A DNA stretch of 47,929 bases from Verrucomicrobiota bacterium (GCA_039815855.1 JBCBYL010000002.1:1-47929); one strand, 5' to 3'; numbered from the stretch's first letter, positions 26,927 through 47,222 are shown. Numbers and translations are program-made. The notes: generated by a model not told the origin, from the sequence alone.

Positions 26927-28005
26927 GAATGAAGAACAGAGAACGCGGATTTTCCCTCATTGAGATGATTGCCGCCATCTCCGTCTTTACCATCATCTCC
27001 CTCATGATGGTGAGCATGGTGGACGGTGTTACTGGCGCCGTGAGGGCCTCCAATAAAACCTTGGACATGGATAGTGAGGCCCGGCTCATCTTTGGCCTCA
27101 TCCAACGTGATTTAGATCAAATCGTCAGTTCCGGCGCAGCCGATCTGCAAACAATTAAGAAGCCCGATAATGACATCTTCTATTTCTTTACTGAATCACC
27201 CGCTTTTAACGATTTTAATCAGCAGGACACTGGAAAATACTCTGTTGTCGGCTACCGCACTTCTACGAAAAAGAATGACCCCCTCTCCCTTCAACTGGAA
27301 CGCTTTGGGATCGGTCTCGCCTGGGATAGCAATGCTTCTAATGGAGCAAATAGCAATACAGGACCCGATCAGATGGTTTTCACCAGTTACAATCCTACTG
27401 ATGGGACAGTGAGACCTGAAGTGCAGATCAGACCCGAAGGACAATTAGATTCTCAGTCTCGTTGGAATGCTATAATAAATGATGGGATAGCGGCTGAGGA
27501 TTCTCCTTTTTTCTCTGTCATTGGCCCCCAGCTCATCCGCTTTGAATATTGCTTTCTCCTCAAGGATGGATCTTATTCTAATTTTCCGGTGATCGGCCCT
27601 GATCCTAACAACCCACCAACTACCAATGGCAATGACCCCGATAATGGAACAAGCGGAAATGTAGGAGATCGCTTGTTTAATTTGGATACAGGTCGTGCTT
27701 TTGCCTGCACCGCTGTCAACTTGGGGACTGGTAACCGCACTTGGCTTCATCACGGGCTCAATGATGTGGCCGCCATTGTCTTCACCATCGTCCTCATGGA
27801 TGAACGCTCACGCTTGATCGCGGGCGATACCAACCTGCTCGTTTCACGATTTCTGGATCTGGATAATACCGAATTACAAGCTAGTCTTCCCTTAGAAACC
27901 TGGTCTGACGAGATCAATGATCCTAACTTCGCCACCATCGCCGGAATTCCCCTGGAAGCCGCGCAGAATCTCAAAGTCTATCAACGTTTCCTCTACCTCG
28001 ATTAA
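26923..28005 (+). CDS. Prepilin-type N-terminal cleavage/methylation domain protein (GspJ/PilW-sized minor pseudopilin-like)
   Basis: 360 aa starting MRMKNRERG/FSLIEMIAAISVF with Glu at +5. An ATGA overlap joins it to the upstream gene. Confidence 0.75.
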   Translation: MRMKNRERGFSLIEMIAAISVFTIISLMMVSMVDGVTGAVRASNKTLDMDSEARLIFGLIQRDLDQIVSSGAADLQTIKKPDNDIFYFFTESPAFNDFNQQDTGKYSVVGYRTSTKKNDPLSLQLERFGIGLAWDSNASNGANSNTGPDQMVFTSYNPTDGTVRPEVQIRPEGQLDSQSRWNAIINDGIAAEDSPFFSVIGPQLIRFEYCFLLKDGSYSNFPVIGPDPNNPPTTNGNDPDNGTSGNVGDRLFNLDTGRAFACTAVNLGTGNRTWLHHGLNDVAAIVFTIVLMDERSRLIAGDTNLLVSRFLDLDNTELQASLPLETWSDEINDPNFATIAGIPLEAAQNLKVYQRFLYLD

Positions 28006-28007
28006 CC

Positions 28008-32087: not shown

Positions 32088-32836
32088 TAAAATATATCCC
32101 CATTATTCTCATTACTTCCCTTATGATTTCAACATGTGGGGCTCTGGCTCAGGAAAAATCTGAGGGCCTTCAAAAACCACCACTTCCCAAAGGGCCAATC
32201 GTGCGAAAAATCAGTGATAATGAGGCGTGGCGAATATCGATTGGTAGCTTGAGTTCCGAAGAAAAGACTTACTCCAATTTGATGGAATACATGATCAATG
32301 GCAGGGGAAATGAAGGGAAAAGAGAAGTATTCTTACGCCGTGTTAAGCCTGTCTGGCATATCAGTATGAAAGGACAGGAGAAGACGTACGAAATATGGTC
32401 CGATGGCTACCAAATGATCGATAAGGATTCAACTAAGGAAAAATTCGGACTGCTCGACTTTGGTTCTAACAATGTTGATGAAGAGGGAATCACCGAGGAA
32501 GAACTCTACAATGAACCATCAATCGTTGGTGAGATAGCAAATAGCATAAGCGGCGATGAATTCCCCGGCTTCCGGGGGCTCAAACCCAAACACTATCAGG
32601 GCGTCGAGGAGTTCAATGGACAACTGTTTCAAATCTTTCAACGAGGAAGTGTCACGCTATGGGTATTCCCGAAAACTAAGGAGCCAATAGCTTGGAACCA
32701 AGGTAATGAAGTGCGTGTTTTTAAGAGGGTCAATGCTTCTGGCAAAATAAAAATACCCCAGGACATCAAGGCCATTTTTGAGAAGTTTAAGAAAGACCGT
32801 GACGTTCTATTTGTTCCCCCTGCTTACGGTGGCTAG
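32084..32836 (+). CDS. Secreted hypothetical protein, translationally coupled to the cassette
   Basis: 250 aa with signal peptide MIKYIPIILITSLMISTCGALAQ. An ATGA overlap joins it to the giant gene. It is visibly more AT-rich than its neighbours. Confidence 0.6.
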   Translation: MIKYIPIILITSLMISTCGALAQEKSEGLQKPPLPKGPIVRKISDNEAWRISIGSLSSEEKTYSNLMEYMINGRGNEGKREVFLRRVKPVWHISMKGQEKTYEIWSDGYQMIDKDSTKEKFGLLDFGSNNVDEEGITEEELYNEPSIVGEIANSISGDEFPGFRGLKPKHYQGVEEFNGQLFQIFQRGSVTLWVFPKTKEPIAWNQGNEVRVFKRVNASGKIKIPQDIKAIFEKFKKDRDVLFVPPAYGG

Positions 32837-33006: not shown

Positions 33007-34476
33007 GTGCAAGTCACTCATCACCTCCTAGAGAAGGCAATCATTTATATCACCTTGCTGCGGCGAGGCGTTTTGGCGAGGATCAGTCAGGGGTTGTTGG
33101 TCTTTCTTCTAGGGCTTTCTTCGCTTGCTTTAGCGGAGGACCAGCCTCCCAATATCATTTTCTTCCTCACGGATGATCAGCGGGATGATGTCCTCGGCTG
33201 TTACGGGAACGAACTGGCGAAAACCCCCACCATCGACGACCTTGCCTCAGAAGGAATCCGCTTCGAAAATTCCTTCTGTCAGGTCCCGATCTGCGCTGCG
33301 AACCGCGCCACCATTCTTTCCGGACTATCCCAGCGGACCCACGGACACAACTTTGGCAAACCACCGGTCCCCTCTGAATACATCGCCAGTAGTTACCCGA
33401 AGGTGCTCAAAGAGGCTGGCTACCGCATCGGCTTTGCTGGGAAATATGGAATGAAATTCGCCGACCCGGGGCTTCAGCAGGAATTCGATTTTTTTAAGAA
33501 GATTGACCGCAATCCTTATATCAAAAAACTGAAAGACGGCACCCGGCGCCATGAGACGGATCTCTGTGCTGATGCGACGATCGAATTCATTCAATCCAAC
33601 CCAGAAGGCAAACCATTCTGCATGTCCGTCAGTTTTAACGCCACCCATGCGGAGGACGGTGATAAACGACCGGGCTACCACTTCCAATGGCCGGAATCCG
33701 CCGACGGTCTATTTGACGATATCACCATGCCGGAGCCCTATCAGGCAGATGAGAAATTCTACCAAGCGCTTCCCTCCTTTCTCCAAAACCCTAAGGAACT
33801 CAATCGTCAGCGTTTCTTTTGGCGCTGGGACACTCCTAAAAAATACCAGACCAACATGCGAGCCTATTTCCGACTGGCGAACGGGATTGACCAGGCTATC
33901 GCACGCGTCATCGAAGCGCTCCAAGCCAAAGGGCTCAGTGAGAACACCATTATTATCTACACCGGCGATAACGGGCTTATGATGGGAGACCGTGGTCTGG
34001 CCGGTAAATGGAATCCCTATGAGCAGTCCCTGCGGGTTCCATTAATCATTTATGACCCACGCCTCCCGGAGGCCCTGCGCGGCCAAGTGCTCCCTCACCT
34101 CGCCAACAGCGTCGATCTGGCGCCAACTATGGTGGACTACGCCGGGGTCAATCTACCCGAAGTTTATCAGGGACGCTCTCTCTTGCCCATGATCCGGGGG
34201 CAGCGGATTGCCTGGCGTGAAGACATTTTCTGCCAGCACCACTTTAAACGATTTAACGATTGGCATGCGGTGCGCGACCAGCGCTACAAATACGCGGTTT
34301 ACTATGATCAGCCCTATGAAGCCCTCTTTGACCTTCAGGAAGATCCAGGCGAACTGATCAACCTCGCTGACAACCCTCACTACGCAGACATCCTGAAGCA
34401 GAAAAAAGAACGGCTCCAGGATTACCTCTCCCGTTTCCCAAAGGCTCCAGAGAAGAAACCCAAGAATAAGAAATAG
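33007..34476 (+). CDS. Sulfatase (Cys-type)
   Basis: 489-aa ORF from a GTG. It has PNIIFFLTDDQRDD and the active-site motif CAANRATILSG (C-x-A-x-R). The true start may be a downstream TTG, for example 33073, just before the signal peptide. Confidence 0.88.
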   Translation: MQVTHHLLEKAIIYITLLRRGVLARISQGLLVFLLGLSSLALAEDQPPNIIFFLTDDQRDDVLGCYGNELAKTPTIDDLASEGIRFENSFCQVPICAANRATILSGLSQRTHGHNFGKPPVPSEYIASSYPKVLKEAGYRIGFAGKYGMKFADPGLQQEFDFFKKIDRNPYIKKLKDGTRRHETDLCADATIEFIQSNPEGKPFCMSVSFNATHAEDGDKRPGYHFQWPESADGLFDDITMPEPYQADEKFYQALPSFLQNPKELNRQRFFWRWDTPKKYQTNMRAYFRLANGIDQAIARVIEALQAKGLSENTIIIYTGDNGLMMGDRGLAGKWNPYEQSLRVPLIIYDPRLPEALRGQVLPHLANSVDLAPTMVDYAGVNLPEVYQGRSLLPMIRGQRIAWREDIFCQHHFKRFNDWHAVRDQRYKYAVYYDQPYEALFDLQEDPGELINLADNPHYADILKQKKERLQDYLSRFPKAPEKKPKNKK

Positions 34477-34479
34477 GGT

Positions 34480-35919
34480 ATGTTCATACGATTACACTAC
34501 GCGCTACTTGCTAGTCTAGTCTGCTATGGCTCTCTGGCTGTAGGAAATGAGAGGCCTAATATCCTGTTTATCTCGGCAGATGACTTGAATGACGTTCCGA
34601 CCTTCATGGGGACCTATGAGGGGGCGATTACGCCGAATATGGATCGCTTGGCTGCCAGTGGAGTCGCTTTCCTGAATGCTCATGTGCAATACCCGATCTG
34701 TGGGCCGTCGAGGGCATCCATTATGTCCGGCATTTTGCCGACGACGCTTGGGTATGCAACGCATCCCAATGATAATGCGGTCCAAGAGCGTGCCCAGGAG
34801 TTAGGGGGCGATACGATTCCGAATTACTTTAAGCAAAGTGGCTACAAGGTGATGGGCGTCGGTAAGCTGTTCCATAAGCACTTACCTGAGGGCACTTTTA
34901 CGGAAAGTGGCACACGGGGTGGTGGCTTTGGCGGATTTGGTGGCTCCTACAGCAAACATAAACGCAATTACCCGTATCCCGGGACCGGCACCGATTGGGG
35001 AGTGACCGATACACCGGATAAACCCATGCCGGATGAAAAGAATGCGGATTGGGTGATTCAGCGTCTGCAACAACAACACGATGCACCCTTTCTACTCATG
35101 CTCGGGCTGCTTCGACCGCATGTACCCTGGATTGTCCGGCAGGAGTATTTCGATCGCTATCCGGAGCCGGAAAAAATCCAGATGATGCCTTACAAGGCAG
35201 ACGATTTGGATGATGTTCCTGAGATCAGCCGAAGGCTAAACATCCACTCAGCAATGCCGCAGACAGACTGGTTGATTCGGACAGGTAAATGGAATTTCAT
35301 GATGCATGCCTACTTGGCATCGACGACGTTCATTGATGATCAAATTGGCCGGGTGCTGGATGCTTTGGAGGCGAGCCCCTATGCCAATAATACCATCGTC
35401 GTTTTCTGGTCGGACCACGGTTATCATTTGGGTGAAAAGGGGACGACCCAGAAACACAGCCTCTGGCAGCGTTCGTCGCGGGTGCCATTCATCATCGCAG
35501 GTCCGGGGATCAAGCCGGCCCTATCGAAGCGGGCGGTGGGACTCATCGATCTGTTCCCCACTCTGGTAGAGTTGTGCGGCATCGAACCCCTTGACGCCTG
35601 GGAAGGCCGTAGTCTGGTTCCTCTACTGGAAGACCCGGATAAGCCGTGGGATCATCCAGTCATCACCTCTTGGGCTGGGAGTAATTATGCTGTGCAGACT
35701 GAGCGGTATCGATATATCCGTTACACGGACGGCTCGGAAGAACTCTACGACCACGAGAAAGACCCGCATGAATGGAAAAATTTGAGCGCGCTATCTGAAT
35801 ACGATTCTCTGAAGCAGACGCTTTCAAAAGGCATTCCCACCGTGGATAACTCTAGTCCAACGCATGTGAAATCAATGATCGGAAGCATAAATCGCTACAG
35901 AGATCGTGTGTTGGAGTAA
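34480..35919 (+). CDS. Sulfatase (Cys-type)
   Basis: 479 aa with a signal peptide, NILFISADDLND, and the active-site motif CGPSRASIMSG. It starts 3 nt after the previous sulfatase gene. Confidence 0.9.
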   Translation: MFIRLHYALLASLVCYGSLAVGNERPNILFISADDLNDVPTFMGTYEGAITPNMDRLAASGVAFLNAHVQYPICGPSRASIMSGILPTTLGYATHPNDNAVQERAQELGGDTIPNYFKQSGYKVMGVGKLFHKHLPEGTFTESGTRGGGFGGFGGSYSKHKRNYPYPGTGTDWGVTDTPDKPMPDEKNADWVIQRLQQQHDAPFLLMLGLLRPHVPWIVRQEYFDRYPEPEKIQMMPYKADDLDDVPEISRRLNIHSAMPQTDWLIRTGKWNFMMHAYLASTTFIDDQIGRVLDALEASPYANNTIVVFWSDHGYHLGEKGTTQKHSLWQRSSRVPFIIAGPGIKPALSKRAVGLIDLFPTLVELCGIEPLDAWEGRSLVPLLEDPDKPWDHPVITSWAGSNYAVQTERYRYIRYTDGSEELYDHEKDPHEWKNLSALSEYDSLKQTLSKGIPTVDNSSPTHVKSMIGSINRYRDRVLE

Positions 35920-36156
35920 GCGTAAGTCAGACGTATCTAAAGCAGCAAAATGCGGACTGTCGCATGACACATTATGGCCACTCAATAGTGAGTGACCCGC
36001 ATCTCTTGTAATCCTTAAGCAACTAAGATATGAAACGTGTTAATTTAGTTTAGATAGATGAATTGTTAATTTAGCTTGCTAATTTCCCTTAAACTGAAAA
36101 GATTACGATCAGCTAGCTAATGCGGTAAGAAGCGTTACTAACGAGGTGATGATGCG

Positions 36157-39100
36157 GTGAAAATTCCAACGGTAGTTGTTTTGTTCGTTTTACATGTGCT
36201 GTCCACGATCGGGTGGGCCCAGATCTCGATACGGGCGAATGATACCAGCAATACATCCACGAAGGAGTTTTTTTACCATTGGGATGGTTTCGAGTTTCAG
36301 TGGCATGGGCCAGGAATCGACTTTGTTAAAAGCGGTGACCTGTCCGGATTCCCGGCGAGCGGGAGCAGCTTTAGCCAGCCGTATTCGGGAAATGGTTTTG
36401 CCTATATCATGTCCTCGGTATCCAACTGGGATACCGGCCTGGCCGCGGCCGCTGTGGCGTCCTCCTCTGGACTCCCTCCAGAATCATCACCCTTTATCGC
36501 CTACCTGAATAGCTTAACGTTTGGAACGGTCAATCGACACGGCGGCAATCAATACGGGTTCGGCGTCGATAATGGAGACGCACGAGTCAGTCCGGAAGCC
36601 CGCGAAGATAAGATCGATGTACCCGGTGAGGCGCTGGTGATTTCTTTCGACCTCCAAGGTCAGCTAGACGTAGGTTCTGCAAGCGGATCATTTGGACCCG
36701 AATCTTCTGCTTCGTTCGAGAATATGGGGCTTCACGAGAACGCTCGGTTAATACTCAAGGAACTGGTTATTCGCCCCTGGGCGGCGGGTGTGACCGGGGA
36801 AATCGATTATCTTTTTTACGATGCCAGCGAGGGTACCTTTTTAAAAAATAGCGCGGGTGTCTCAGCCTTTCGCGAATACGTCGATATGCGCACGACAGGT
36901 TCAGTTCTTCAGGGCCCCTGGACGATTGAGCATGGGGATATCCTCATTATCGCGCATCCCACCGATACGACGAAAAACCTCAACCTGATTTCATCCGAAC
37001 TCTGGAGTATGACCTTCGACCTGGAGTTTGACGCACCTACCCCTGCTCCCTTAGACGTTCCCAGCGATCCAGCGGACTTTCCCCAACACCAATACGCGCC
37101 CGGTTTTTCCAACATCTGGCGGACCGATGGAGAATTACTGGCCATGTATCGCACAGAGCCTGGCAACTCCAGCATCCGGACTGTGGTTCAGGACTTTCAC
37201 CGTGGATATCTCCTGACCGAAAACCGGGGATCGACTATTGGTAATAGCCACATCTTTTTCGACCTCACCGATGTCACTTCCGAAAACCCCAGTGTCCCCC
37301 TTCCCGAGGACCGGATACTCACGGAGGCTTTGAAAGTTCCCAACAGGGGGAATATGCACACGGCCTACTCACTCTTGCCGGACTACCGGGTGAATCATCC
37401 CGGAGACAATTACGTAGATTTAGCTGGTCTATCCAACAGCACGCCGAGCATTGCCACGGTCGGCAGACCTCCGGGCTTCTCCGGAGCGGATGGGGGTGCC
37501 CGCAGCGCCTATATTCTCCCGTACCACTACGATTCGCAAGGCAATGGAAAAAGAATCGTGGATGCGCGCACGGGGCAGACGCTCTCTACCTTCGATGAAT
37601 ACGGCTTTGGCAGCGGAACCCTTCCGGTTCCTGTCGGGAACATCCTCCTACTAGCCAAAATTCGCGCCGGTGAACGTGCCATCGCCAGCTATGACATCAG
37701 CGATCCTGCAAACCCGGTACTGCTCGATGTGATGCGAGACTCGGATCCTCGCTGGCGGCATCAGGAAGGTGGAGCTTATGAGCCAGCCATTTACAATAAC
37801 TACTTTGTTGTCCCCCTATCGCTCCGCGGCGGCACCATCGGGTTTGTCGACTACACGGATCCGGGAAACCTACGCATGCACCACATCATCAGCGGCACCA
37901 GGGGTGCTCAGCGCTACATGCAATTTCAGGATCACCGGATGTTTGCCGGGACCGAAGTCATTGATCTCACCCACCTTAACGGAGGCATCACCCCGACGGA
38001 GCACAACTTCCCGGGTCATAAAGGCGAATATATGCTCCCCCTCGGAAATCTGGTGGTTTGCGCTGAGAATTCAGAACAGGGCGGTGACAATCTCGGTGCC
38101 ATTTACGCCTTCCAGGCCGAGCCCGATGTCCGTCCTCCTTCGGTCACCTATCATGTTCCCGCCGCCGACGCGACGGACCAGCTGGTAACAAGTCGCATCG
38201 GAATGGTGATTCACGAGACGCTGGACGCCACCACGATTGATGAAACCACCTTCCGTGTTTTTCCGGTTAGCGATACCACTGAAACCAGCATTCCGGGCAC
38301 CCGGGTGTGGAGTGATAAGGATATTCTCACCTTTACCCCCATGTCTCCGCTTGAACCCGAGACGACCTATCGCGTCGTGGTTGAGGGCTTCACCGACATC
38401 GTCAGCAATCCCATTGGGCGCTATAGCTTTAACTTCACCACGGCCGGTCCGGATTCACTCTTCTACCCCACGGTTACACAAGCCGGCATAACGACCGCGG
38501 AACTAATCGTCGACACGCCCATTGAGTTCTTCCTCAATGCCACCCCGGATGGGGGACAAAACGCCGATACCCTCGAATATAGCTGGGACTTTGGAGATGG
38601 TACCGTGACGGATTGGAGCAACGCAAACCAGACCATCAGTCACGCCTATCAATATCCTGGTAAGTTTGCGGTCCGGGCCCGTGTGCGCAGCGTCAATGCG
38701 CCCGAGCGGGTGGCCATGCGCTATCTACAGCCTTCGGTGTTCTTCAAGGCGGCAGGTGAAGATGGTTTCGAGCCTCGCTTTGAAGCTGAAAGAGGAACGT
38801 TGACCGGTCCCAATAGCGGGATTTTTACCTCAACGGATTCGTCTGGTGGGATGTATGTCGTGGGCGGACCGAATTCCGGGCTTTATTGGGACTTTGATAG
38901 TGTCGGCGGCGCTTTTGATTTTCAATTCCTCATCGCCATGCCGGAAGGAACATCCGTTCCGGGCAATCAAAGTACCTGGTGGCGAATGGGTGTCTACGTG
39001 AGCGAGATTGTCGATGGGGTTGAAACCAACGAGGTTTTCCTTGGGGAGATTGAAACGCGTAGTCTCACCTATGAATACAAGGGCACCTCGGCCTATCTTC

Positions 39101-41892
39101 CACGTGAGGGCCGCTACCGTCTCCGACTGAGGCGAGGTACGGGTGTCCGTGATCCACGGGTCGATTACGTGGATGTGAAGCTGAGCACTGCCCCCATACG
39201 TTTTGAGGCAGAAGGGGTCAGCCTGGAAAATATTGTCAGAGGGGACATTAAGGCCAATGCGGGCGCCTCGGGAGGTTCGCTGGTCGACGGACGGGGCGGC
39301 TTCAATATCCAATGGGATTTCGAAGCTGCGGTCGCAGGGACACACACCCTGAACTTTGCTGTTGGAGTTCCAGGCAGTAGCACACGGTCCATGAGTGTCT
39401 GGATTGATGGGGAGTTGGTTCAGGTCCTGACATCCAGTTTTGTCGGCATCGAAGAGCAAACGATTCTGGTCGATCTGGCTGCCGGAACCCACACCATCGA
39501 ACTGCGCGACACCGAGGGCACAGCAGAATTCAATGTCGACTATCTCGATATCATCGTTCCAGCACACATGTCCGAAGTTGTCCTCCCGCCTCTCAAGAGC
39601 AGTCAGATTGTACTCGATGAGGCGAATCGGCTTATCATCTCAGTCAACCCAGATAATGACACGATCACCGCCATCGATGCCGATCTAGATCCGGCAGTCG
39701 GGAACCCGAGTCCAGTGTGGGAAGTTGAAGTTGCGAGTAATCCGCGTGGCTTGGCGATCGATGTCTTTGGCCGGATCTGGGTGACCTGTTTTGAGGCCGG
39801 GGTCATCACTATCATTGATCCGGTTAACCCCGCCAATAACGTTGACCTGAATCTTGGTTATGGTTCGAAACCTCACGATATTCTCTTTGATCACGAGGGT
39901 AACCGCGCCTTTATTTCTCTCTACGGATATGGACAAATTGTTCAATTGGATGCCACTAACTTCAATGTGATTAGCGTTGTCCAGCCTGGCCCTACGCCCA
40001 CTGCGCTGGCGCTGCGCTCGAATGGAGACGAACTCCTCGTCAGCCGATTCATTTCACCCGCAGATGTTGGAGAGGTCTATTCCATCCGTATCGATCAGGA
40101 TAGTTATGCTATGACCCTCCAGCCCACCATTGAGCTTGCCAAGGACGTCGACAGTGATGATGGTCCGAATTCCGGGCGAGGTCTCCCGAATTATCTTTCA
40201 CATATCACGATTGATCCCGACAACGCAGCAGCCTATATCGCCTCCCAACAAGTGAACACCTTAGCAGGCACGTTCCGTGACAACACGAGCTTAAACCACG
40301 ACTCTACCGTCCGGAGCATTGTCTCACGGATTGACTTCGACACCGGCCAGGAAGATTTCATGAGTCGCATTGATATCAATGATAGTTCCCAACCGTCGGC
40401 ACTTCTTTTCTCGCCTCTTGGTGACTTCCTCTTCGTCGCACTTCAGGGAAACAACGCAGTTAGCGTCATCGATACAGCGACCGGGGTTTCCGTGGACAAG
40501 CTGCTGACCGGACTGACCCCTCAAGGTCTCTGTTTCGATCCGACGACGAACCGGCTCTTCGTTAAAAACTTCATGAGTCGGTCAATTTCCACCTTTGACC
40601 TCAGCGGCTTGTTTTCAGGGGGCAGTGCCTCAAAGCACCCTGACGTGCCGACGGTCACAACCGAAACGTTGACCACAGATGTCCTTCTCGGGAAACAGAT
40701 ATTCTACAATGCCGCAGACGAACGAATGAGCTTCCAAGGCTACCTCTCCTGCGCCTCCTGTCACCAGAATGGTGGACATGACGGCGTGACCTGGGACTTC
40801 ACCCAGCGCGGCGAAGGCTTGCGGAACACGACTGACCTCCGGGGTCGCTCCGGGGTAACCCAAGGCAATGTCCACTGGAGTGGTAACTTCGATGAAATCC
40901 AGGATTTTGAACTCGATATGGTTAATCATTTTGGTGGGACTGGCTTCATCGAAAGCGGTGCCCCCCATCCTTCCACCGGTGCCCCAAACAGCGGAAGGAG
41001 TGCCGATCTCGATGCACTCGCGGCATACGTCACCTCTTTATCCAAGGAGTCTGTGCCTCAAAGCCCTTATCGCCAGGCCGATGGAACCCTGACAGCCGAT
41101 GGCCTGTTTGGCCGTCGCCTATTCGAAGGTGAAATTGTACCTGCCTCCGGAATCAAGTTAAACTGCACGGACTGTCACGTGCCGGAGCAGCAATTCACCA
41201 ATAGCCAGCTTGCCAATGATGTGCTCGATAATCTCACCGTTTTCAATATCGGGACGATGAAAAACAGCTCGGGGACCCGACTCTTTAACGATTTACCGGG
41301 CATCGATACCCCGACACTTTGGGGACTCCATGACGGCGCTCCTTACCTGCACGATGGCAGTGCGGCCACCATTGAAGAAGTCTTCGACCAATTCGATCCA
41401 TCAGCCGCGGTTGGTGAGGACGGAGCTGCTCACAATCTCACCGCCACTGGATACCATCTCACCGCCACAGAGAAAGCGGGCTTGATTGCTTATTTATTAC
41501 AGATCGACGGTCGAGACCGGCAACGGATGAACGCCACCACCTGGGTGAATTCCTGGGGGGATGATTTGGGAGAAATGGACGAGGATTACGATGGGGATCG
41601 CATCAGTAACTATGACGAATATCGCTTCGGGGGGAACCCGACCATCAGCGATGCAGGGGGCCAAAAACCACGGATCGTGGTTGAGGATGGAAACTTAAAA
41701 TTCCGCTTCAACAGGAGGAATAACGACCCCTCGCTCTCCTATCGGATTTTACATTCAACCGATCTGAACAACTGGTCTGAGTTGGTCGATCCTGCCCTCG
41801 AAATGGATATGGAAAATGGTCCCATCGAGGTCCTTGACCTTCCGGCTTCTCCATCCGAGACCAAGGAATTCTTTAAGATCGAGTTCGAGTAG
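36157..41892 (+). CDS. Giant secreted multidomain protein: LVIVD-like propeller region, Ig-like, PKD, two CBM-like modules, YVTN-like beta-propeller, di-heme cytochrome c peroxidase/MauG-like module, and a Ca-binding-like C-terminal region
   Basis: 1911 aa. The GTG start has gaggtga 8 nt upstream, and the signal peptide is MKIPTVVVLFVLHVLSTIGWAQ. IASYDISDPANPVLLDV is an LVIVD-like repeat. TIDETTFRVFPV...TYRVVVEGFTD is SbsA-type Ig-like (about 38180-38445). WDFGDGT marks a PKD domain (about 38480-38735). Two RFEAE(R/G)...VDY(V/L)D modules lie at about 38770-39185 and 39195-39560. The heme motifs are CASCH (40750-40764) and CTDCH (41164-41178), with TPTLWGL...APYLHDGSAATIEEV. DEDYDGDRISNYDEY lies near the C-terminus. 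Confidence 0.85.
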   Translation: MKIPTVVVLFVLHVLSTIGWAQISIRANDTSNTSTKEFFYHWDGFEFQWHGPGIDFVKSGDLSGFPASGSSFSQPYSGNGFAYIMSSVSNWDTGLAAAAVASSSGLPPESSPFIAYLNSLTFGTVNRHGGNQYGFGVDNGDARVSPEAREDKIDVPGEALVISFDLQGQLDVGSASGSFGPESSASFENMGLHENARLILKELVIRPWAAGVTGEIDYLFYDASEGTFLKNSAGVSAFREYVDMRTTGSVLQGPWTIEHGDILIIAHPTDTTKNLNLISSELWSMTFDLEFDAPTPAPLDVPSDPADFPQHQYAPGFSNIWRTDGELLAMYRTEPGNSSIRTVVQDFHRGYLLTENRGSTIGNSHIFFDLTDVTSENPSVPLPEDRILTEALKVPNRGNMHTAYSLLPDYRVNHPGDNYVDLAGLSNSTPSIATVGRPPGFSGADGGARSAYILPYHYDSQGNGKRIVDARTGQTLSTFDEYGFGSGTLPVPVGNILLLAKIRAGERAIASYDISDPANPVLLDVMRDSDPRWRHQEGGAYEPAIYNNYFVVPLSLRGGTIGFVDYTDPGNLRMHHIISGTRGAQRYMQFQDHRMFAGTEVIDLTHLNGGITPTEHNFPGHKGEYMLPLGNLVVCAENSEQGGDNLGAIYAFQAEPDVRPPSVTYHVPAADATDQLVTSRIGMVIHETLDATTIDETTFRVFPVSDTTETSIPGTRVWSDKDILTFTPMSPLEPETTYRVVVEGFTDIVSNPIGRYSFNFTTAGPDSLFYPTVTQAGITTAELIVDTPIEFFLNATPDGGQNADTLEYSWDFGDGTVTDWSNANQTISHAYQYPGKFAVRARVRSVNAPERVAMRYLQPSVFFKAAGEDGFEPRFEAERGTLTGPNSGIFTSTDSSGGMYVVGGPNSGLYWDFDSVGGAFDFQFLIAMPEGTSVPGNQSTWWRMGVYVSEIVDGVETNEVFLGEIETRSLTYEYKGTSAYLPREGRYRLRLRRGTGVRDPRVDYVDVKLSTAPIRFEAEGVSLENIVRGDIKANAGASGGSLVDGRGGFNIQWDFEAAVAGTHTLNFAVGVPGSSTRSMSVWIDGELVQVLTSSFVGIEEQTILVDLAAGTHTIELRDTEGTAEFNVDYLDIIVPAHMSEVVLPPLKSSQIVLDEANRLIISVNPDNDTITAIDADLDPAVGNPSPVWEVEVASNPRGLAIDVFGRIWVTCFEAGVITIIDPVNPANNVDLNLGYGSKPHDILFDHEGNRAFISLYGYGQIVQLDATNFNVISVVQPGPTPTALALRSNGDELLVSRFISPADVGEVYSIRIDQDSYAMTLQPTIELAKDVDSDDGPNSGRGLPNYLSHITIDPDNAAAYIASQQVNTLAGTFRDNTSLNHDSTVRSIVSRIDFDTGQEDFMSRIDINDSSQPSALLFSPLGDFLFVALQGNNAVSVIDTATGVSVDKLLTGLTPQGLCFDPTTNRLFVKNFMSRSISTFDLSGLFSGGSASKHPDVPTVTTETLTTDVLLGKQIFYNAADERMSFQGYLSCASCHQNGGHDGVTWDFTQRGEGLRNTTDLRGRSGVTQGNVHWSGNFDEIQDFELDMVNHFGGTGFIESGAPHPSTGAPNSGRSADLDALAAYVTSLSKESVPQSPYRQADGTLTADGLFGRRLFEGEIVPASGIKLNCTDCHVPEQQFTNSQLANDVLDNLTVFNIGTMKNSSGTRLFNDLPGIDTPTLWGLHDGAPYLHDGSAATIEEVFDQFDPSAAVGEDGAAHNLTATGYHLTATEKAGLIAYLLQIDGRDRQRMNATTWVNSWGDDLGEMDEDYDGDRISNYDEYRFGGNPTISDAGGQKPRIVVEDGNLKFRFNRRNNDPSLSYRILHSTDLNNWSELVDPALEMDMENGPIEVLDLPASPSETKEFFKIEFE

Positions 41893-41974: not shown

Positions 41975-42376
41975 CTATCCTTCATACGCTTCGATGACAC
42001 ACCCCGGAATACGGCGGAACTGGGCCACATTCCGCGTCAACAATGGTGTTTCTATCTCAATCGCGGTGCTGGCAATCCAGAGATCATGCGGGCCGGGTAG
42101 TGCATTCTTCTTTTTCAGGATGGCATAGAGAGAGGCAAAGCGTTGCACAATCCGCTCATCAGGCCAAAGAGTCGGGTAACGATCTAGAAAATCGTTCACA
42201 ACTGACGCATCCTGCCCCGTATAGATAGAACCACACAGAAATTCCCCCTTCACTATCCAGGGGATTCCTAAAGACTGGTCTGGGTGATTACGTAACCAAG
42301 CCCAGGCCTTTCCTGCACTTTTCTCCCTCCAGACCGAGATGAGAAAGTTCGTATCGATGAGATAATCAATGGACAT
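41975..42376 (-). CDS. vapC: PIN-domain toxin, VapC family
   Basis: 133 aa with YLIDTNFLI at the N-terminus and conserved acidic positions (E in KGEF, D in HDLWIA). It lies immediately downstream of a small antitoxin-like ORF. Confidence 0.8.
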   Translation of the reverse strand: MSIDYLIDTNFLISVWREKSAGKAWAWLRNHPDQSLGIPWIVKGEFLCGSIYTGQDASVVNDFLDRYPTLWPDERIVQRFASLYAILKKKNALPGPHDLWIASTAIEIETPLLTRNVAQFRRIPGCVIEAYEG

Positions 42377-42401: not shown

Positions 42402-42641
42402 TTAAGAAGGCTCAACTTCATTTGTCGAGTTCCATCGATTCGACCACCTTATCGATTCCCCAATGGCTTTAGACTCATCTTCGGTCATCATCGGAAGTTT
42501 TTCGGCTTCGTTGAGCATGTCTGCTGCCGTTCCTCGCTTAGGGACCGACTTAAGAACCACCTTCGAAAAGGAGTCCGAAGGCCCTGATTTCCACGATTTC
42601 AATCGTTCGTAAGCTTCATCCGTTAGACTGATTGTTTTCAT
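42402..42641 (-). CDS. Putative antitoxin (VapB-like)
   Basis: Taken from the internal ATG at 42641, it is 79 aa. MKTISLTDEAYERLKSWKSGPSDSFSKVVLK resembles the 'putative antitoxin' family found upstream of PIN toxins. There is a 25-nt gap to vapC. Confidence 0.6.
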   Translation of the reverse strand: MKTISLTDEAYERLKSWKSGPSDSFSKVVLKSVPKRGTAADMLNEAEKLPMMTEDESKAIGESIRWSNRWNSTNEVEPS

Positions 42642-42746
42642 GTCAACACAGTACACAGTAACATGGATTAGGTCAATCACCAGACCCCTTTGACATACGG
42701 ATTTTTACTTCGTCTTCCCTGCATTCCTGTGAGATGATTTCCTAAG

Positions 42747-44189
42747 ATGAAAAGAAGGCTTCTAATACTTATTGTTGTCGCCTCTGTTCTTGCTCCTGAT
42801 AGAGGGCGATGCGCTGAATCTCAACCCTCTGAGAAACCGATGAACATCCTCTTTCTCATCATTGATGATCTCAATACCTGGCTTCTCTCGAAGGAGGGCC
42901 GTTATGAGGGCAACGTTGTCGCCCCCCATATCCGGAAATTAGCCGATAGCGGCATCAATTTTACTAACGCCTATTGCTCCAGTCCGAAGTGCTCCCCTTC
43001 GCGCACCTCTTTCCTGAGCGGTGTCGCCCCCTGGAAATCCGGGCACACCAATAATGGTCTGGATATCAAGAAAAATGAAGTGCTGGCGCAGGCGATCGCC
43101 TTTCCGAAACTCCTCCAACAAAACGGCTATGTCATCGGCAGCGCGGGTAAAGTTGGCCACGGATATGACTTTGATTATGAGTCTGACATTCCGCGTGGAG
43201 AAGGAGCGGGGCGGCGTCCTCCCTTTCCTCCCGATGCTCCCTTAAAAGGATTTGGTAAGAAGAACGAGTATGACTGGGGACCGATTCATATTCCAGAAAG
43301 TGAGATGGGGGATACGAAGGTGGCTGACTTTGCCATCCGTGCTCTGGAAATGGATCACGAGAAACCCTTTTTCATCGCTGCCGGCCTCTTCTGCCCGCAC
43401 ATGCCCTGGTATGTGCCTCAAAAATACTTTGATATGAATCCCTTAGAAGAGATCGACCTCCCTCCGTTGAAGGAAGGAGACCTTGATGATGTGCCAGCGG
43501 CTGGAAAAGATCTGGTCAGCTCATTTTATCAATCAGCCCTGAAGGCCGGAAAGTACAAGGAAGGCGTGCAAGGCTACCTGGCCGGAACGTCCTATTCCGA
43601 TTTCCAGATGGGCCGGATTCTGGACACACTCGAAAAAAGTAAATATCGAGACAATACCATCGTCATTCTCTTCAGTGATCATGGCTTCCACGTCGGAGAG
43701 AAAGGCCACTGGCAGAAAGGAACCCTCTGGGAAGATGGGTCGAATACCCTGCTCACGATTCGAGTGCCGGGCATGACCCAGGCTGGTCAGGTATGCGAAC
43801 GCCCTGTCTCCCTCCTCGACCTGTATCCCACCCTCATGGAGCTGGCCGGAATTGAAGCACCCGCTTATCTCGATGGCCAGTCACTGGTGCCATTGCTCAA
43901 AGATGTCACCGCGCCCCGTGAGCAACCCGCCCTGACTGTTTACGATACCCACATTGCCGTCCGCACCCAGCAGCACCGTCTCATTCGCTACGGAGATGGC
44001 AGCATGGAACTCTATGATCATGCTCAGGACCCGAATGAATGGAAAAATCTAGCAAACGATCCCGCTTATACCGACGTTCGCGACCAACTGGCTGCACTCC
44101 TCCCCACCCCGGAAGAAATGGCTCCCATGGCTCCAGGTAAAGTCCGTGGAAAAGGTAAGAGCAGTAAGAGCAAAAAGGATAAGTCCTAG
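42747..44189 (+). CDS. Sulfatase (Cys-type)
   Basis: 480 aa with a signal peptide, NILFLIIDDLN, and the active-site motif CSPSRTSFLSG. The tail is Lys-rich. Confidence 0.9.
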   Translation: MKRRLLILIVVASVLAPDRGRCAESQPSEKPMNILFLIIDDLNTWLLSKEGRYEGNVVAPHIRKLADSGINFTNAYCSSPKCSPSRTSFLSGVAPWKSGHTNNGLDIKKNEVLAQAIAFPKLLQQNGYVIGSAGKVGHGYDFDYESDIPRGEGAGRRPPFPPDAPLKGFGKKNEYDWGPIHIPESEMGDTKVADFAIRALEMDHEKPFFIAAGLFCPHMPWYVPQKYFDMNPLEEIDLPPLKEGDLDDVPAAGKDLVSSFYQSALKAGKYKEGVQGYLAGTSYSDFQMGRILDTLEKSKYRDNTIVILFSDHGFHVGEKGHWQKGTLWEDGSNTLLTIRVPGMTQAGQVCERPVSLLDLYPTLMELAGIEAPAYLDGQSLVPLLKDVTAPREQPALTVYDTHIAVRTQQHRLIRYGDGSMELYDHAQDPNEWKNLANDPAYTDVRDQLAALLPTPEEMAPMAPGKVRGKGKSSKSKKDKS

Positions 44190-44270: not shown

Positions 44271-44954
44271 TCATTGAGACGGTTCTAACGTCCGCCAAAT
44301 GAGATTCCGATATTCCGCCTCTGCATCGTAGGTAGCTAAACCGAACGGTACGGTTTCCTCGATGTCGCTGTAAAACATACTGATTTCCCGGCCGGTAATA
44401 TCCACATCGACCACGACCTCCCCATCAATCCAACATCGGATCCTATCGGGTCGCACTCGGATTCGACAATGATACCAGCGCGCTTCCTCGAAGGTGTAAA
44501 AATTGGTCGTATCATTATCAGCCGCACTCATCTCGTCCAAATTAGAAATGCCGACGAGATCCCCTCCCCAGCCTCCACAGATCCAACTGCAATGATCGGG
44601 CCCCACAGGGATGGTCAAGCCGAGAAAAATGTCCTGCCCCCCGGTTCGACGCGCCTCGAGTTCGATTTCATAATCGATACGTGCTGGAAGCTCCCCCTTC
44701 CAGGTCACTCCGCTCATATACTCCCCCACTTCGAGTTTCATTACCCCTTCAGTGATGTGAAATGATCCACCCCTCTCGATAGCGGCCCGTTCCCAATCAT
44801 CTTTCAGGGGACCACTGAGGAGATGCAGTTCTTCGATCACACCCTCTTGCTCGGAAGGCGATTGAACTAACTTCTCTCTGGAGCATGAAAGAATGATCAC
44901 TCCCAGGCCGAAAGTGATAAGACGTTTCAGCGTGATCAAATTGATCTTTATCAT
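44271..44954 (-). CDS. Lipoprotein with a LamG/DUF1080-like jelly-roll domain (tentative)
   Basis: 227 aa with lipobox ILSC. IDYEIELEARR, GGWGG, WYHCRIRV and a C-terminal YRNLIWRTL are reminiscent of DUF1080 (3-keto-disaccharide hydrolase-like) proteins. Confidence 0.4.
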   Translation of the reverse strand: MIKINLITLKRLITFGLGVIILSCSREKLVQSPSEQEGVIEELHLLSGPLKDDWERAAIERGGSFHITEGVMKLEVGEYMSGVTWKGELPARIDYEIELEARRTGGQDIFLGLTIPVGPDHCSWICGGWGGDLVGISNLDEMSAADNDTTNFYTFEEARWYHCRIRVRPDRIRCWIDGEVVVDVDITGREISMFYSDIEETVPFGLATYDAEAEYRNLIWRTLEPSQ

Positions 44955-45164: not shown

Positions 45165-47222
45165 ATGAAAGATTCCCTGTCCGATGCTGATTTTCTCAAG
45201 GCCTATTCCGAGGCCTCGTTGGAGCTGGGAGAATTTGATCAGTTCCGGGATGAGATTGAGTCAACCCGTTACCTGGATGAGGAATTTGTCTCCGAAGGCG
45301 GTATTAAACGTGTTTATAAGGCTTTTGACTCTACCGGGAAGCGCACCGTGGCTCGCGCCTTTCCCAAATCGGAGGAATCAAAATATCATGATACCTTTGT
45401 CCGGGAGGCTCGGCTGCACACACAATTGGAGCACCCGAATATCATTCCGATCTATGATATGGGCGTGGAGGAGGGCAAACCGTACTTCTCCATGAAGTAC
45501 ATCGATGGGGGAACCCTGCATGAGTATATCGAGGAGATGGATCCGGCAGTGCGCCAGAGTTCTGAGCACTTGAATTCGGTTTTTGACATTTTTCTCAAGG
45601 TCTGTGACGCGGTTTCCTACGCCCATTCTAAGAATATCTTACACCTCGATATCAAGCCGAAGAATATCTATCTCAATGAGTATGGGGAAGTGTATGTGGG
45701 GGACTGGGGACTCTCACGCGTGGTCGATCCCATTCTACTCGAAGAAAAGCTCTCCTACGATTCCTTAGGGCAATGCACCTTTTACGGCCATTTAACCGGC
45801 ACCCCCGGCTTCATGGCACCGGAGCAATGCCAGAAAGGAGCAAAGAAGGGCTACACCAGTGATATCTATTCGCTGGCGGTGCTACTGGTCTACTTACTCA
45901 CCGGGAAAATGGTGGTCACTGGCAGTCCGGATGAAATGATTCAAAAGACCATCGCCGGAGACCTCTTACAGCTAGACGGGTTATTAGACGATCGTTTATG
46001 CGGTGTCTTAGAGAAAGCGCTCGCTACCGATCCGTCACACCGGTATCCCTCCGTCAAAGAATTCTTGATCGACATCAATGCCTACCGCAACGGTTTCCTC
46101 ACGTCGACCGAGCAGTTTTCGGTGCTCAAACTGGCTGTCGCGATTTACAACCGAAATAGACTGGCATCAAATCTCATCATTGGTTTTGCCGTCATTCTTT
46201 TTTCGATCTCCGTGTTCTTCGTAATGGAAATCAGCCAGGCTCGGGATTATGCACTGACTCAGGAGAGGATCAGTAAGGAGAGGCTGGAACAGTATCTGGA
46301 AAGTGAAGAGGAACGCTCCAAAACGATGACCCGGGCCTATGGTTTTCTGCTCAGTGAAGGAATCGATAATTATACCCGCCGTAAATCGGGAGCCGGATTC
46401 TCGCATGAGAATTTTTTAGATGCTGAGAATATGGCGAAGACCGCACTCCAGTTTGATCCTGCCTCGCCGGAGGCTTGGGCGCTCAAAGGAAAAATCGACC
46501 TCGTCTATGGTCGTTTTAAACAGGCCTATGAGGCTTTTTCGAAGGCCGGAGCTGGATACGAAACTTATCAAGAATTATGCCAATTCGCAGAAAGCAAGGA
46601 TATCACCCAACTCCCGGATCTGGTCGCGATACTGAATCGCATACGGAGTATCGATGATAATCGCCTGTTCAATCACATGATATTCAAGGAAATGTATCGA
46701 CCCCGGCCATTGCCAAAGCAAATGGAGTTTGTCCGTGCCTTTTTGATTCTCCGAAATAATTTAGACGATTCCGTCCATTTCCAGTTTGATGAATCCCGCA
46801 TGGCATTGGATCTATCTACCAACCCGAAGTTGGAAATCCTGTACATGCTACAAAACCTTCCGCTCCGGGGGCTGGATTTATCTCACTCGGGTGTGCGCAC
46901 AGGTGATTTCATCCACCTGCAAAACTTACCGCTGGAATCTTTAGATGTTTCCCATACGTCCTTTGACGATTCTAAAATGAAGTTGTTAACCAATAAGCCA
47001 CTGGAATTCCTCTCGTTGGAAAATTGTCCGGTCAGCAACCTAAGACCACTGCAGGGGATGCCTCTGACGTATTTGAATGTGAAAGGCACGAACTGCTCTG
47101 ACTTTCGTGTTCTGAAAACACTGGCTCAGTTGGAAACGGTCGTCTGTTCGCCAAGCCAAAAATCAGCCATCGAACAAAACCTGCCTGCCGGGAGTCAGGT
47201 CAGAATCATGACGCAACAGTAA
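45165..47222 (+). CDS. Membrane-anchored Ser/Thr protein kinase with extracytoplasmic TPR-like and leucine-rich-repeat region
   Basis: 685 aa. The kinase motifs are HLDIKPKN, VGDWGLSR and GTPGFMAPE. One TM helix is LIIGFAVILFSISVFFVMEI (about 46170-46240). The C-terminal LRR-like units include LQNLPLRGLDLSHSGV, LQNLPLESLDVSHTSF and PLEFLSLENCPV. Confidence 0.85.
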   Translation: MKDSLSDADFLKAYSEASLELGEFDQFRDEIESTRYLDEEFVSEGGIKRVYKAFDSTGKRTVARAFPKSEESKYHDTFVREARLHTQLEHPNIIPIYDMGVEEGKPYFSMKYIDGGTLHEYIEEMDPAVRQSSEHLNSVFDIFLKVCDAVSYAHSKNILHLDIKPKNIYLNEYGEVYVGDWGLSRVVDPILLEEKLSYDSLGQCTFYGHLTGTPGFMAPEQCQKGAKKGYTSDIYSLAVLLVYLLTGKMVVTGSPDEMIQKTIAGDLLQLDGLLDDRLCGVLEKALATDPSHRYPSVKEFLIDINAYRNGFLTSTEQFSVLKLAVAIYNRNRLASNLIIGFAVILFSISVFFVMEISQARDYALTQERISKERLEQYLESEEERSKTMTRAYGFLLSEGIDNYTRRKSGAGFSHENFLDAENMAKTALQFDPASPEAWALKGKIDLVYGRFKQAYEAFSKAGAGYETYQELCQFAESKDITQLPDLVAILNRIRSIDDNRLFNHMIFKEMYRPRPLPKQMEFVRAFLILRNNLDDSVHFQFDESRMALDLSTNPKLEILYMLQNLPLRGLDLSHSGVRTGDFIHLQNLPLESLDVSHTSFDDSKMKLLTNKPLEFLSLENCPVSNLRPLQGMPLTYLNVKGTNCSDFRVLKTLAQLETVVCSPSQKSAIEQNLPAGSQVRIMTQQ

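Follow-up and report, generated by a model that had tools for sequence, protein, structure and literature searches.

A secreted mosaic protein of a Verrucomicrobiota bacterium exposes a large, uncharacterised family of c-type di-heme proteins

Here, we analyse a 1911-amino-acid (aa) protein encoded on a 47,929-nucleotide stretch of DNA from a Verrucomicrobiota bacterium (GCA_039815855.1 JBCBYL010000002.1:1-47929), called the window below; positions are counted from its first letter and residues are numbered along the product of the open reading frame (ORF) at 36157..41892. The evidence supports well that this product is a secreted, multi-domain c-type di-heme protein and that it belongs to a large, uncharacterised family. 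Its domain order is equally well supported: a domain that we call N1, an LVIVD-type propeller (N2), a Big_5 domain, a PKD domain, two CBM35-like carbohydrate-binding modules (CBMs), a YVTN propeller, a di-heme domain and a tail.

How such a protein works is a more delicate question. We tentatively propose, and give a little less than an even chance, that the di-heme unit uses peroxide and serves the N-terminal propeller head as its redox partner while the CBM35 pair tethers the protein to polysaccharide; this estimate joins high confidence in what the protein is to low confidence in how it works. The protein may thus perform oxidative chemistry on or near polysaccharides. An earlier note on this DNA had gone further, reading the same mosaic as a partner of four flanking sulfatase genes in sulfated-glycan processing and as a combination of domains not described before. 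Our domain searches bear out the modules that it named, the CBMs and the peroxidase-like module included. The partnership with the sulfatases and the novelty of the combination find no support in the comparisons presented below.

Domain architecture of the protein

The ORF is the longest of the region and reads through 1911 codons uninterrupted. An in-frame stop lies at 36139-36141, the first start codon thereafter is the GTG at 36157, and a Shine-Dalgarno-like GAGG is found ~11 nt upstream of it. This is a real gene: seven full-length homologues exist at 48-68% identity; they were found in a collection of 5.8 billion proteins, all come from Verrucomicrobiota/Opitutales metagenome-assembled genomes (MAGs), with P0002 as the closest at 68% identity. 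The DnaE encoded in the window is at most 62% identical to that of any species-representative genome (top match, a Verrucomicrobiota MAG), which places the source in a lineage of Verrucomicrobiota that has been sampled poorly. The features of the ORF are the following:

36157..41892, plus strand: whole ORF, 1911 aa, stop included; GTG start, full-length homologues at 48-68% identity
36157..36222 (preceding 36223), plus strand: predicted Sec-type signal peptide, aa 1-22, no lipobox Cys; read from the sequence
36223..37041, plus strand: N1, modelled beta-sandwich domain, family unassigned, aa 23-295; AlphaFold2 (AF2) model, subfamily-specific
37054..38124, plus strand: N2, divergent LVIVD-type beta-propeller, the family-core 'head', aa 300-656; profile homology, AF2 and Foldseek
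38125..38451, plus strand: Big_5 bacterial Ig-like domain, aa 657-765; Pfam PF13205, E 5e-13 (match aa 657-762)
38464..38754, plus strand: PKD domain, aa 770-866; Pfam PF00801 and PF18911, E 1e-8 (match aa 793-844)
38764..39180, plus strand: CBM35-like module 1, divergent, aa 870-1008; hhalign to module 2
39190..39558, plus strand: predicted CBM35 module 2 (RFEAE...VDYLD), aa 1012-1134; profile against solved CBM35s
39574..40641, plus strand: 7-bladed YVTN/NHL-type beta-propeller, aa 1140-1495; matches to 1l0q, hydrazine synthase (HZS) beta and YncE
40654..41526, plus strand: predicted di-heme c-type cytochrome domain of the bacterial cytochrome c peroxidase (bCCP)/MauG superfamily, aa 1500-1790; Pfam, profile against PDB
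40750..40764, plus strand: heme-binding motif 1, CASCH, aa 1532-1536; invariant in the family
41164..41178, plus strand: heme-binding motif 2, CTDCH, aa 1670-1674; invariant in the family
41527..41889, plus strand: conserved tail, aa 1791-1911, with W..WG, a DxDGD..E..G.P loop and an ~80-aa beta domain; alignment of homologues

At the N-terminus, MKIPTVVVLFVLHVLSTIGWA|Q (the bar marks the predicted cleavage site) resembles a Sec signal peptide and contains no lipobox Cys; Q22 is unchanged across 8 homologues. The first 300 residues contain a separate domain, N1, that the earlier note had overlooked when it described the N-terminal region as LVIVD-like repeats. N1 has no sequence match in Pfam or PDB. 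Modelled alone with AF2, it reaches a pLDDT of 69.9 and a pTM of 0.75, and Foldseek returns nothing significant for the model; the top match is a CBM22 at an insignificant E of 0.034, and we did not adopt N1 as a CBM. Domain models run on the retrieved proteins confine N1 to P0001-8, P0015-17, P0019 and P0021.

The LVIVD character of the next domain, N2, emerges only by indirect routes. Searches of aa 1-658 in Pfam, NCBIfam and PDB, by single sequence and by profiles, returned nothing usable, and the Pfam LVIVD model (PF08309) has no match in the window protein at E<=1, the best value being E 0.4 in one of 8 homologues. An exhaustive search of 1.84 billion representatives with the N2 profile matched 196 proteins, the weakest of which are bona fide LVIVD propellers: the profile matches P0083, P0105 and P0119 at E 5e-11 to 4e-7, and each of these contains 5-8 LVIVD repeats (Pfam E 1e-40 to 1e-67). 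P0040, a family member, matches the LVIVD model directly but weakly. A low-confidence AF2 model (aa 23-660, pLDDT 61.5) is all-beta with beta-propellers as its Foldseek matches; it supports 'beta-propeller' and no more. Because the profile reaches true LVIVD propellers and the model folds as a propeller, N2 qualifies as LVIVD-type by transitive homology. Its motifs include YDISDPANPVLLD, HRMFAGTEVIDLT, HKGEYMLPLGN and CAENSEQG. A PDB match of the region to Tako8, a protein of designed WD40 repeats, has no single significant stretch and was set aside as a repeat artefact.

The middle of the protein turned out as first read: the SbsA-type Ig-like domain is a Big_5 domain, and the PKD domain carries its WDFGDG motif at aa 810. 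The two modules that begin RFEAE and end VDY(V/L)D, previously called CBM6/35-like, can be placed with more precision. When compared with PDB, a profile of module 2 built from 8 homologues matches 5x7o (7e-16), 3wnk (1.5e-11), 2w3j, 2w47, 2vzp, 4qb1 and essentially every other solved CBM35 across positions 3-122, and even its single sequence matches 3wnl at 2e-5. By this homology module 2 is a CBM35, and glycan binding is its predicted function. Module 1 has no direct PDB match and counts as a CBM35 solely via its homology to module 2 (hhalign profile-profile comparison, 99.4% probability, E 3e-21). The conserved EAE...D(Y)xD residues of the modules presumably correspond to the structural calcium site of CBM6/35.

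The C-terminal tail has no match in PDB or NCBIfam. The DxDxDG stretch noticed earlier is DEDYDGD at aa 1808, part of a conserved DxDGD...E..G.P motif; that it binds calcium would be a guess. In P0004 and P0008 the tail module lies inside the protein, and P0090 contains it more than once; we therefore rejected it as a C-terminal sorting signal. Several distant members (e.g. P0045, P0053, P0076 and P0154) have a GG(T/N)VYQAED... sequence right after the di-heme domain; it recalls the (R/Y)xEAE with which CBM6/35 modules begin and hints at C-terminal CBM-like modules missed by our models and by Pfam.

The YVTN propeller and di-heme unit

The second propeller matches 1l0q at E 8e-19 by single sequence and 9e-38 by profile, confirming the YVTN-like propeller, and the profile also finds HZS beta (5c2v_B, 1.9e-18) and YncE (1e-17). 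In NCBIfam, TIGR03866 matches at 3.6e-11 and TIGR02276 scores 25 bits, just below its cut-off of 27.85. The following domain is the peroxidase-like module of the earlier reading. Pfam PF03150 (CCP_MauG) matches the ORF at E 4e-9 (37.6 bits against a cut-off of 25.6); Cytochrom_C is a further Pfam match. One CXXCH is present per lobe, CASCH and CTDCH, each fully conserved in two sets of family sequences, of 23 and of 91; in the alignment, the C-lobe motifs (V/T)P(T/S)L(R) and PY(F)HDG of 3o5c, 1iqc and 6e1c fall on IDTPTLWG (aa 1716-1723) and APYLHDG (aa 1728-1734). By the CXXCH pair, the model match and the C-lobe motifs, the domain is assigned to the bCCP/MauG superfamily.

Within this superfamily the closest solved relative is not a peroxidase. 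The family profile of the di-heme domain matches HZS gamma best (2.7e-28), then the bacterial cytochrome c peroxidases 3o5c (6.6e-17) and 1iqc (2.8e-15), MbnH (6e1c, 1.7e-15) and MauG (3l4m, 5.7e-7). In the alignment to 1iqc the heme-ligand Met (...VETM...) falls on Phe1746, in a column that is not conserved in the family, and His1759 (GAAHNL) and the helix that follows it align with the C-terminal MHGRTSHL...LVEYL segment of HZS gamma, whose second heme is bis-His coordinated (PMC12758564). Because the Met is replaced by Phe1746 and His1759 aligns with this segment, the domain would not be a canonical peroxidase: the expected His/Met ligation of the C-terminal heme is probably absent. Trp1574, part of HWSGNFDE, does not vary within the family. 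The alignments to the CCP models do not reach this stretch; from the shape of the motif and from PMC12758564, Trp1574 would be the inter-heme Trp of CCP/MauG (FWDGR).

These residues bear on the simplest account of the protein, namely a surface-tethered cytochrome c peroxidase that detoxifies H2O2 and that propellers, Ig domain and CBMs merely hold in a glycan-rich envelope or at an algal surface. Superfamily membership, the retained PTLx and PYxHDG motifs and the frequent annotation of relatives as cytochrome c peroxidase all agree with it, and the CBMs could well serve as an anchor. Yet the Met of the electron-transfer heme is replaced in the 1iqc alignment, the scores with curated models for peroxidase, MauG and MbnH stay well under the cut-offs, no extracellular electron donor is obvious, and a strict five-domain core with a conserved propeller head is not needed for such a task. 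We therefore regard plain detoxification as unlikely.

Could the unit do what its closest relatives do? Fused HZS beta-gamma homologues are common outside anammox bacteria, as a 2025 study found, and these non-anammox proteins are missing the catalytic residues of the true enzyme and have the Trp typical of CCP/MauG (PMC12758564). Because the closest solved relatives of the propeller/di-heme unit are HZS gamma and beta, its membership in this widespread group of fused 'HZS beta-gamma-like' proteins appears well supported. None of the curated NCBIfam identities was accepted: scores are 39.8 bits against a cut-off of 625 for HZS gamma (NF052341), 33.6 against 1250 for HZS beta-gamma (NF052342), 14.5 against 560 for HZS beta (NF052340), 30.2 against 443.85 for the MauG equivalog (TIGR03791) and 47.2 against 362.85 for the MbnH equivalog (TIGR04039). 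The window contains no multi-heme gene resembling the alpha subunit. Judged by its sequence, the product is homologous to hydrazine synthase, yet it is not a hydrazine synthase.

A weaker form of the idea is that the unit performs small-molecule redox chemistry on nitrogen or sulfur compounds, as HZS gamma does (NO to hydroxylamine), with glycan binding as an incidental feature. HZS gamma and beta, its best relatives in PDB and NCBIfam, speak for this, as does the His-containing C-terminal helix shared with HZS gamma. The missing alpha-subunit homologue, the low scores of the hydrazine models and the invariant Trp1574, which would correspond to the Trp of non-anammox homologues deprived of key HZS catalytic residues (PMC12758564), speak against it, and we consider it quite improbable.

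The conserved core and its CBM-bearing subfamily

To delimit the family, one hidden Markov model (HMM) per domain of the window protein was run on all retrieved proteins, which were clustered at 50% identity. At least 91 clusters have the full core, always in the same order: N2, Big_5, (PKD), YVTN propeller and di-heme domain. The architecture is thus anything but unique. Every complete core member has exactly two CXXCH motifs. Over the 91 clusters, the di-heme domain is by far the most conserved: 70 of its 291 positions are conserved at >=90%, whereas N2 reaches 21 of 367 and the second propeller 19 of 356. Taken alone, this domain finds no fewer than 1138 relatives at E<=1e-20, spread over Myxococcota, Bdellovibrionota, Chloroflexota, Gammaproteobacteria and other groups. 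In their sources the relatives are named 'cytochrome c peroxidase', 'YVTN beta-propeller protein' or 'hypothetical' and nothing else, and no database source gives the family a functional name.

This pattern of conservation is hard to reconcile with the view that the protein is mainly an adhesin or structural surface protein whose hemes serve extracellular electron transfer and not catalysis. Its size, its Ig, PKD and propeller content and its lectin-type modules are adhesin-like, and the best match of the YVTN propeller is an archaeal surface-layer protein. However, it is the heme domain, not the binding modules, that is conserved best; moreover, two hemes make a poor wire and the superfamily is enzymatic. 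We find this view very unlikely.

The CBM35 pair, inserted between the PKD domain and the second propeller, occurs only in P0001-P0008 and P0017, with a single CBM at this place in one further protein; N1 and the tail are likewise restricted in distribution. It is well supported that all three were added by a small Verrucomicrobiota/Opitutales subfamily that includes the window protein. The CBMs were inserted late, and specifically in this subfamily; the conserved core for the most part does without them.

One Opitutales MAG, GCA_049599475.1, has at least six paralogues, each in a different neighbourhood (L001, L003, L004, L006 with two copies, and L008; also L010-L015). It is the sole genome among 185,579 GTDB species representatives that contains the N2 motif patterns of the subfamily, a scan that undercounts since these patterns are subfamily-specific; the HMM search gives the true breadth. 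Mean pairwise identities differ strongly between domains:

Di-heme domain: 62% among all eight full-length proteins, 62.5% among the paralogues within the MAG
Big_5 domain: 61% among all eight, 56% within the MAG
N2: 60% among all eight, 54% within the MAG
CBM module 2: 35% among all eight, 30% within the MAG
CBM module 1: 33% among all eight, 27% within the MAG

A steady redox core combined with fast-diverging CBMs suggests one chemistry that the paralogues direct to different glycans. Other members of the heme family carry CBM6, PA14, RICIN or malectin modules. Directly downstream of the paralogue P0005 (L003:16445-20917) lies a 1490-aa protein with CBM_6, CBM_35_2, Big_5 and PKD domains and no heme domain, in the manner of a relative or partner without hemes.

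The head of the core is itself exchangeable. In P0010 (Prosthecobacter; L101:8001-17216) and P0011, both giant proteins with many lectin-type modules (malectin, PA14, CBM6/35 and LamG), a head resembling the copper radical oxidases galactose and glyoxal oxidase is found upstream of the PKD/YVTN-propeller/di-heme unit. By sequence, these two would be natural oxidase-peroxidase fusions.

Neighbouring genes, possible function and known systems

The four flanking sulfatase genes reported earlier are indeed present, together with a fifth:

22781-24325: fifth sulfatase
33007-34476 and 34480-35919, plus strand: two tandem S1 sulfatases (Pfam Sulfatase, 1e-49 and 4e-50), separated from the ORF by 237 bp
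41975-42376 and 42402-42680, minus strand: PIN-domain (VapC-like) toxin (Pfam PIN, 6e-9) and 92-aa putative antitoxin
42747-44189, plus strand: downstream sulfatase, beyond the reverse-strand toxin-antitoxin pair
47313 to window end, minus strand: sulfatase cut by the window end

The flanking sulfatases have signal peptides and Cys-type formylglycine motifs. The 48 kb of the window contain five sulfatases, one of them flanked by the housekeeping genes for malic enzyme and acetolactate decarboxylase, so that their adjacency to the ORF is likely a matter of chance. The 237-bp gap that separates the upstream pair from the ORF is AT-rich. The toxin-antitoxin pair, missed by the earlier note, stands in reverse orientation in the interval from the ORF to the downstream sulfatase, which therefore cannot be co-transcribed with the ORF. 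Scanning 32.7-42.8 kb for promoter and terminator consensus sites gave no more sites than shuffled sequences. Across the family, a sulfatase is found within about 8-10 kb at six of 10 informative loci (the window, L003, L006, L096, L097 and L099), directly adjacent and on the same strand at three (the window, L096 and L099), and not within this distance at four (L001, L004, L098 and L101); L008 and L100 were too short to be counted. Nor do the six paralogues of GCA_049599475.1 have sulfatase neighbours in common. The sulfatases probably reflect the general glycan-foraging gene content of the genome and are not dedicated partners. Other glycan genes occur near several members, including a GH29 fucosidase (L003), GH10, GH99, esterases and beta-helix proteins, making a glycan-foraging setting of the family plausible.

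These observations weaken the proposal that the protein is a non-hydrolytic oxidative enzyme acting directly on sulfated polysaccharides of the fucoidan, carrageenan or ulvan type in one pathway with the flanking sulfatases. Two secreted S1 sulfatases directly upstream on the same strand, the CBM35 modules, the similar arrangement in L096 and L099, the looser linkage within 10 kb in L003, L006 and L097, and the fucosidase in L003 all encouraged it. The linkage is nonetheless absent from four loci and variable among the six paralogues, the sulfatase background is high, the AT-rich gap lies on the upstream side of the ORF and the toxin-antitoxin pair on its downstream side, and most of the family has no CBMs. 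We also know of no polysaccharide-cleaving chemistry for bCCP/MauG-type hemes. The proposal is, in our judgement, unlikely. What stands of the earlier idea is a plausible redox role near glycans, consistent with the recurrent lectin and CBM modules, the glycan-gene neighbours and the galactose-oxidase fusions; the coupling to sulfatases is not supported.

Several further neighbours were recorded. Just upstream of the sulfatases, 25629-32836 (plus strand) comprises an operon-like series of three genes with prepilin-type N-terminal methylation motifs (248, 184 and 360 aa) followed by 1359-aa and 250-aa proteins without Pfam match; this cluster may encode a pseudopilus or a type II secretion-like system. 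The paralogue P0006 (L008) is preceded by genes for 1323 and 232 aa, also devoid of Pfam matches, and BLASTP similarity to the 1359-aa and 250-aa proteins is nil, so that a conserved operon was rejected. Between the downstream sulfatases lie a 3-keto-disaccharide hydrolase-like (DUF1080-type) gene (44271-44954, minus strand) and a Ser/Thr protein kinase with TPR repeats (45165-47222, plus strand); a kinase and a sigma factor also stand beside a paralogue in L006. Pairs of extracytoplasmic function (ECF) sigma factor and FecR-type anti-sigma factor adjoin P0004 (L004), P0020 (L096) and P0024 (L097) on their upstream side, the anti-sigma factor of L096 having a LamG domain, which suggests control of these genes by trans-envelope signalling; no such pair is found in the window. 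Finally, amid housekeeping genes, 17589-18389 (minus strand) encodes a 266-aa protein with the homing-endonuclease-associated HNH_repeat (3e-21), which may be a mobile-element remnant.

We come back to the reading that we prefer, a di-heme unit serving the propeller head. Exported by Sec, the protein would receive its two covalently attached hemes in the periplasm and then be released or displayed. The CBM35 pair would tether it to polysaccharide, the variation of CBMs among paralogues suggesting different glycan targets. The N-terminal heme (CASCH) would be the site of reaction, the oxidant being H2O2 or a comparable small molecule, and the C-terminal heme (CTDCH) would relay electrons via the conserved Trp1574; this heme would probably be bis-His coordinated with His1759, as in HZS gamma, and not His/Met as in canonical peroxidases. 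The di-heme unit would then act on the head, either consuming the peroxide that the head produces or re-oxidising and maturing its active site. MauG, for its part, matures its partner protein. We infer the pairing of di-heme unit and head from the domain substitution in P0010 and P0011: because a galactose-oxidase-like head replaces the LVIVD head in these proteins, peroxide-coupled oxidase chemistry is hinted at. Copper radical oxidases produce H2O2, need one-electron activation by a peroxidase and have natural peroxidase partners (PMC12951238), and the SBP56 methanethiol oxidase shares its operon with a MauG homologue to which its maturation is ascribed (PMC5739008). In its boldest version, the core of LVIVD-propeller head, Ig spacers and HZS beta-gamma-like di-heme unit would be a self-contained extracellular oxidase-peroxidase machine and stand for a new 'auxiliary activity' class among carbohydrate-active redox enzymes: the head would oxidise a glycan or a glycan-bound substrate, the di-heme unit would use the peroxide so formed to keep the head active or would install a protein-derived cofactor in it, and, in the subfamily of the window protein, the variable CBM35 pairs would aim the whole at particular marine, possibly sulfated, polysaccharides. 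We hold this version to be improbable.

A number of points weigh against the pairing of head and di-heme unit on glycans. A cofactor or metal site could not be assigned in the N2 head, where ~21 of 367 positions are conserved at >=90% family-wide. The closest solved relative, hydrazine synthase, does nitrogen rather than peroxide chemistry. The galactose-oxidase fusions are two proteins, and in one of them the oxidase is parted from the heme unit by other domains. Most members have no CBM, so that glycan binding does not belong to the core, and some members (L098, L101 and L001) sit among unrelated genes. The axial-ligand assignments of His1759 and Trp1574 are themselves predictions from alignments, and passage across the outer membrane is assumed.

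Among known systems, the fused HZS beta-gamma-like proteins (PMC12758564; 5c2v chains B and C) are the nearest, with the same order of YVTN-type propeller and di-heme domain. HZS gamma and beta are the best solved matches of the product (2.7e-28 and 1.9e-18) the C-terminal His-containing helix is shared with HZS gamma, and a Trp is present as it is in the non-anammox proteins; in contrast to all these, the ORF product has no alpha partner gene in the window and has four to six extra domains (N1, LVIVD propeller, Big_5, PKD, two CBM35, tail). With the bCCP/MauG/MbnH superfamily it has in common two CXXCH at the expected spacing and the PTL(R/W) and PY(F/L)HDG motifs, but it differs by Phe1746 at the Met ligand site and by the fusion to a propeller. 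Unlike MauG and MbnH, it has no gene for a separate substrate protein (preMADH- or MbnP-like) nearby.

Non-hydrolytic redox enzymes, among them lytic polysaccharide monooxygenases, copper radical oxidases and cellobiose dehydrogenase, have changed the view of polysaccharide breakdown. To our knowledge, almost no comparable redox enzymes are known for marine sulfated glycans or from bacteria of the Planctomycetes, Verrucomicrobia and Chlamydiae group. CBM-bearing secreted c-type cytochrome proteins have been described, namely Cbp2D and Cbp2E of Cellvibrio japonicus and TERTU_3803 of Teredinibacter turnerae (PMC8981238, PMC10916295, PMC12542752). They are likewise large secreted mosaics of CBM and CxxCH modules with a proposed redox role in extracellular carbohydrate chemistry, and TERTU_3803 also has an SGL-type beta-propeller; their descriptions set them apart by CBM2/CBM10 and small mono-heme X183/X132 domains, as against CBM35 and a di-heme domain here. 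The pairs of AA5 copper radical oxidase and peroxidase (PMC12951238) resemble P0010 and P0011, in which a propeller-fold oxidase would be served by a heme peroxidase. The head of the window protein, however, is an LVIVD-type and not a Kelch/galactose-oxidase propeller, with no copper ligands or Tyr-Cys pair identified, and in the fungal pairs the oxidase is not fused to its heme peroxidase, which is of an unrelated kind. The SBP56/SCO1/MauG operon (PMC5739008) also couples a propeller enzyme, distantly LVIVD-related, to a MauG-like di-heme protein, in this case genetically; here propeller and di-heme domain are fused, SCO1 is absent at the ORF, and the N2 profile does not match SBP56 structures, the link running only via LVIVD proteins that weakly match SBP56.

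The combination of CBM and heme redox module in a secreted protein had thus been described, as had the fused HZS beta-gamma homologues (PMC12758564), and the claim of an undescribed combination falls. We found no paper on the five-domain core or on its CBM35-bearing subfamily, and a literature search combining LVIVD and cytochrome c peroxidase returned none. A single odd ORF has led to a defined, widespread and uncharacterised family, with at least 91 full-core clusters and more than 1100 relatives of the heme domain, and the value lies less in one gene than in this large conserved family. It offers testable handles: a conserved di-heme domain related to HZS gamma, an interchangeable propeller head and lineage-specific, fast-diverging CBMs. 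Even if its function were ordinary peroxide removal, the family would still be a large unannotated group of surface heme proteins. Beyond this, we envision that it provides a functional lead for the many hydrazine synthase beta-gamma homologues of non-anammox bacteria.

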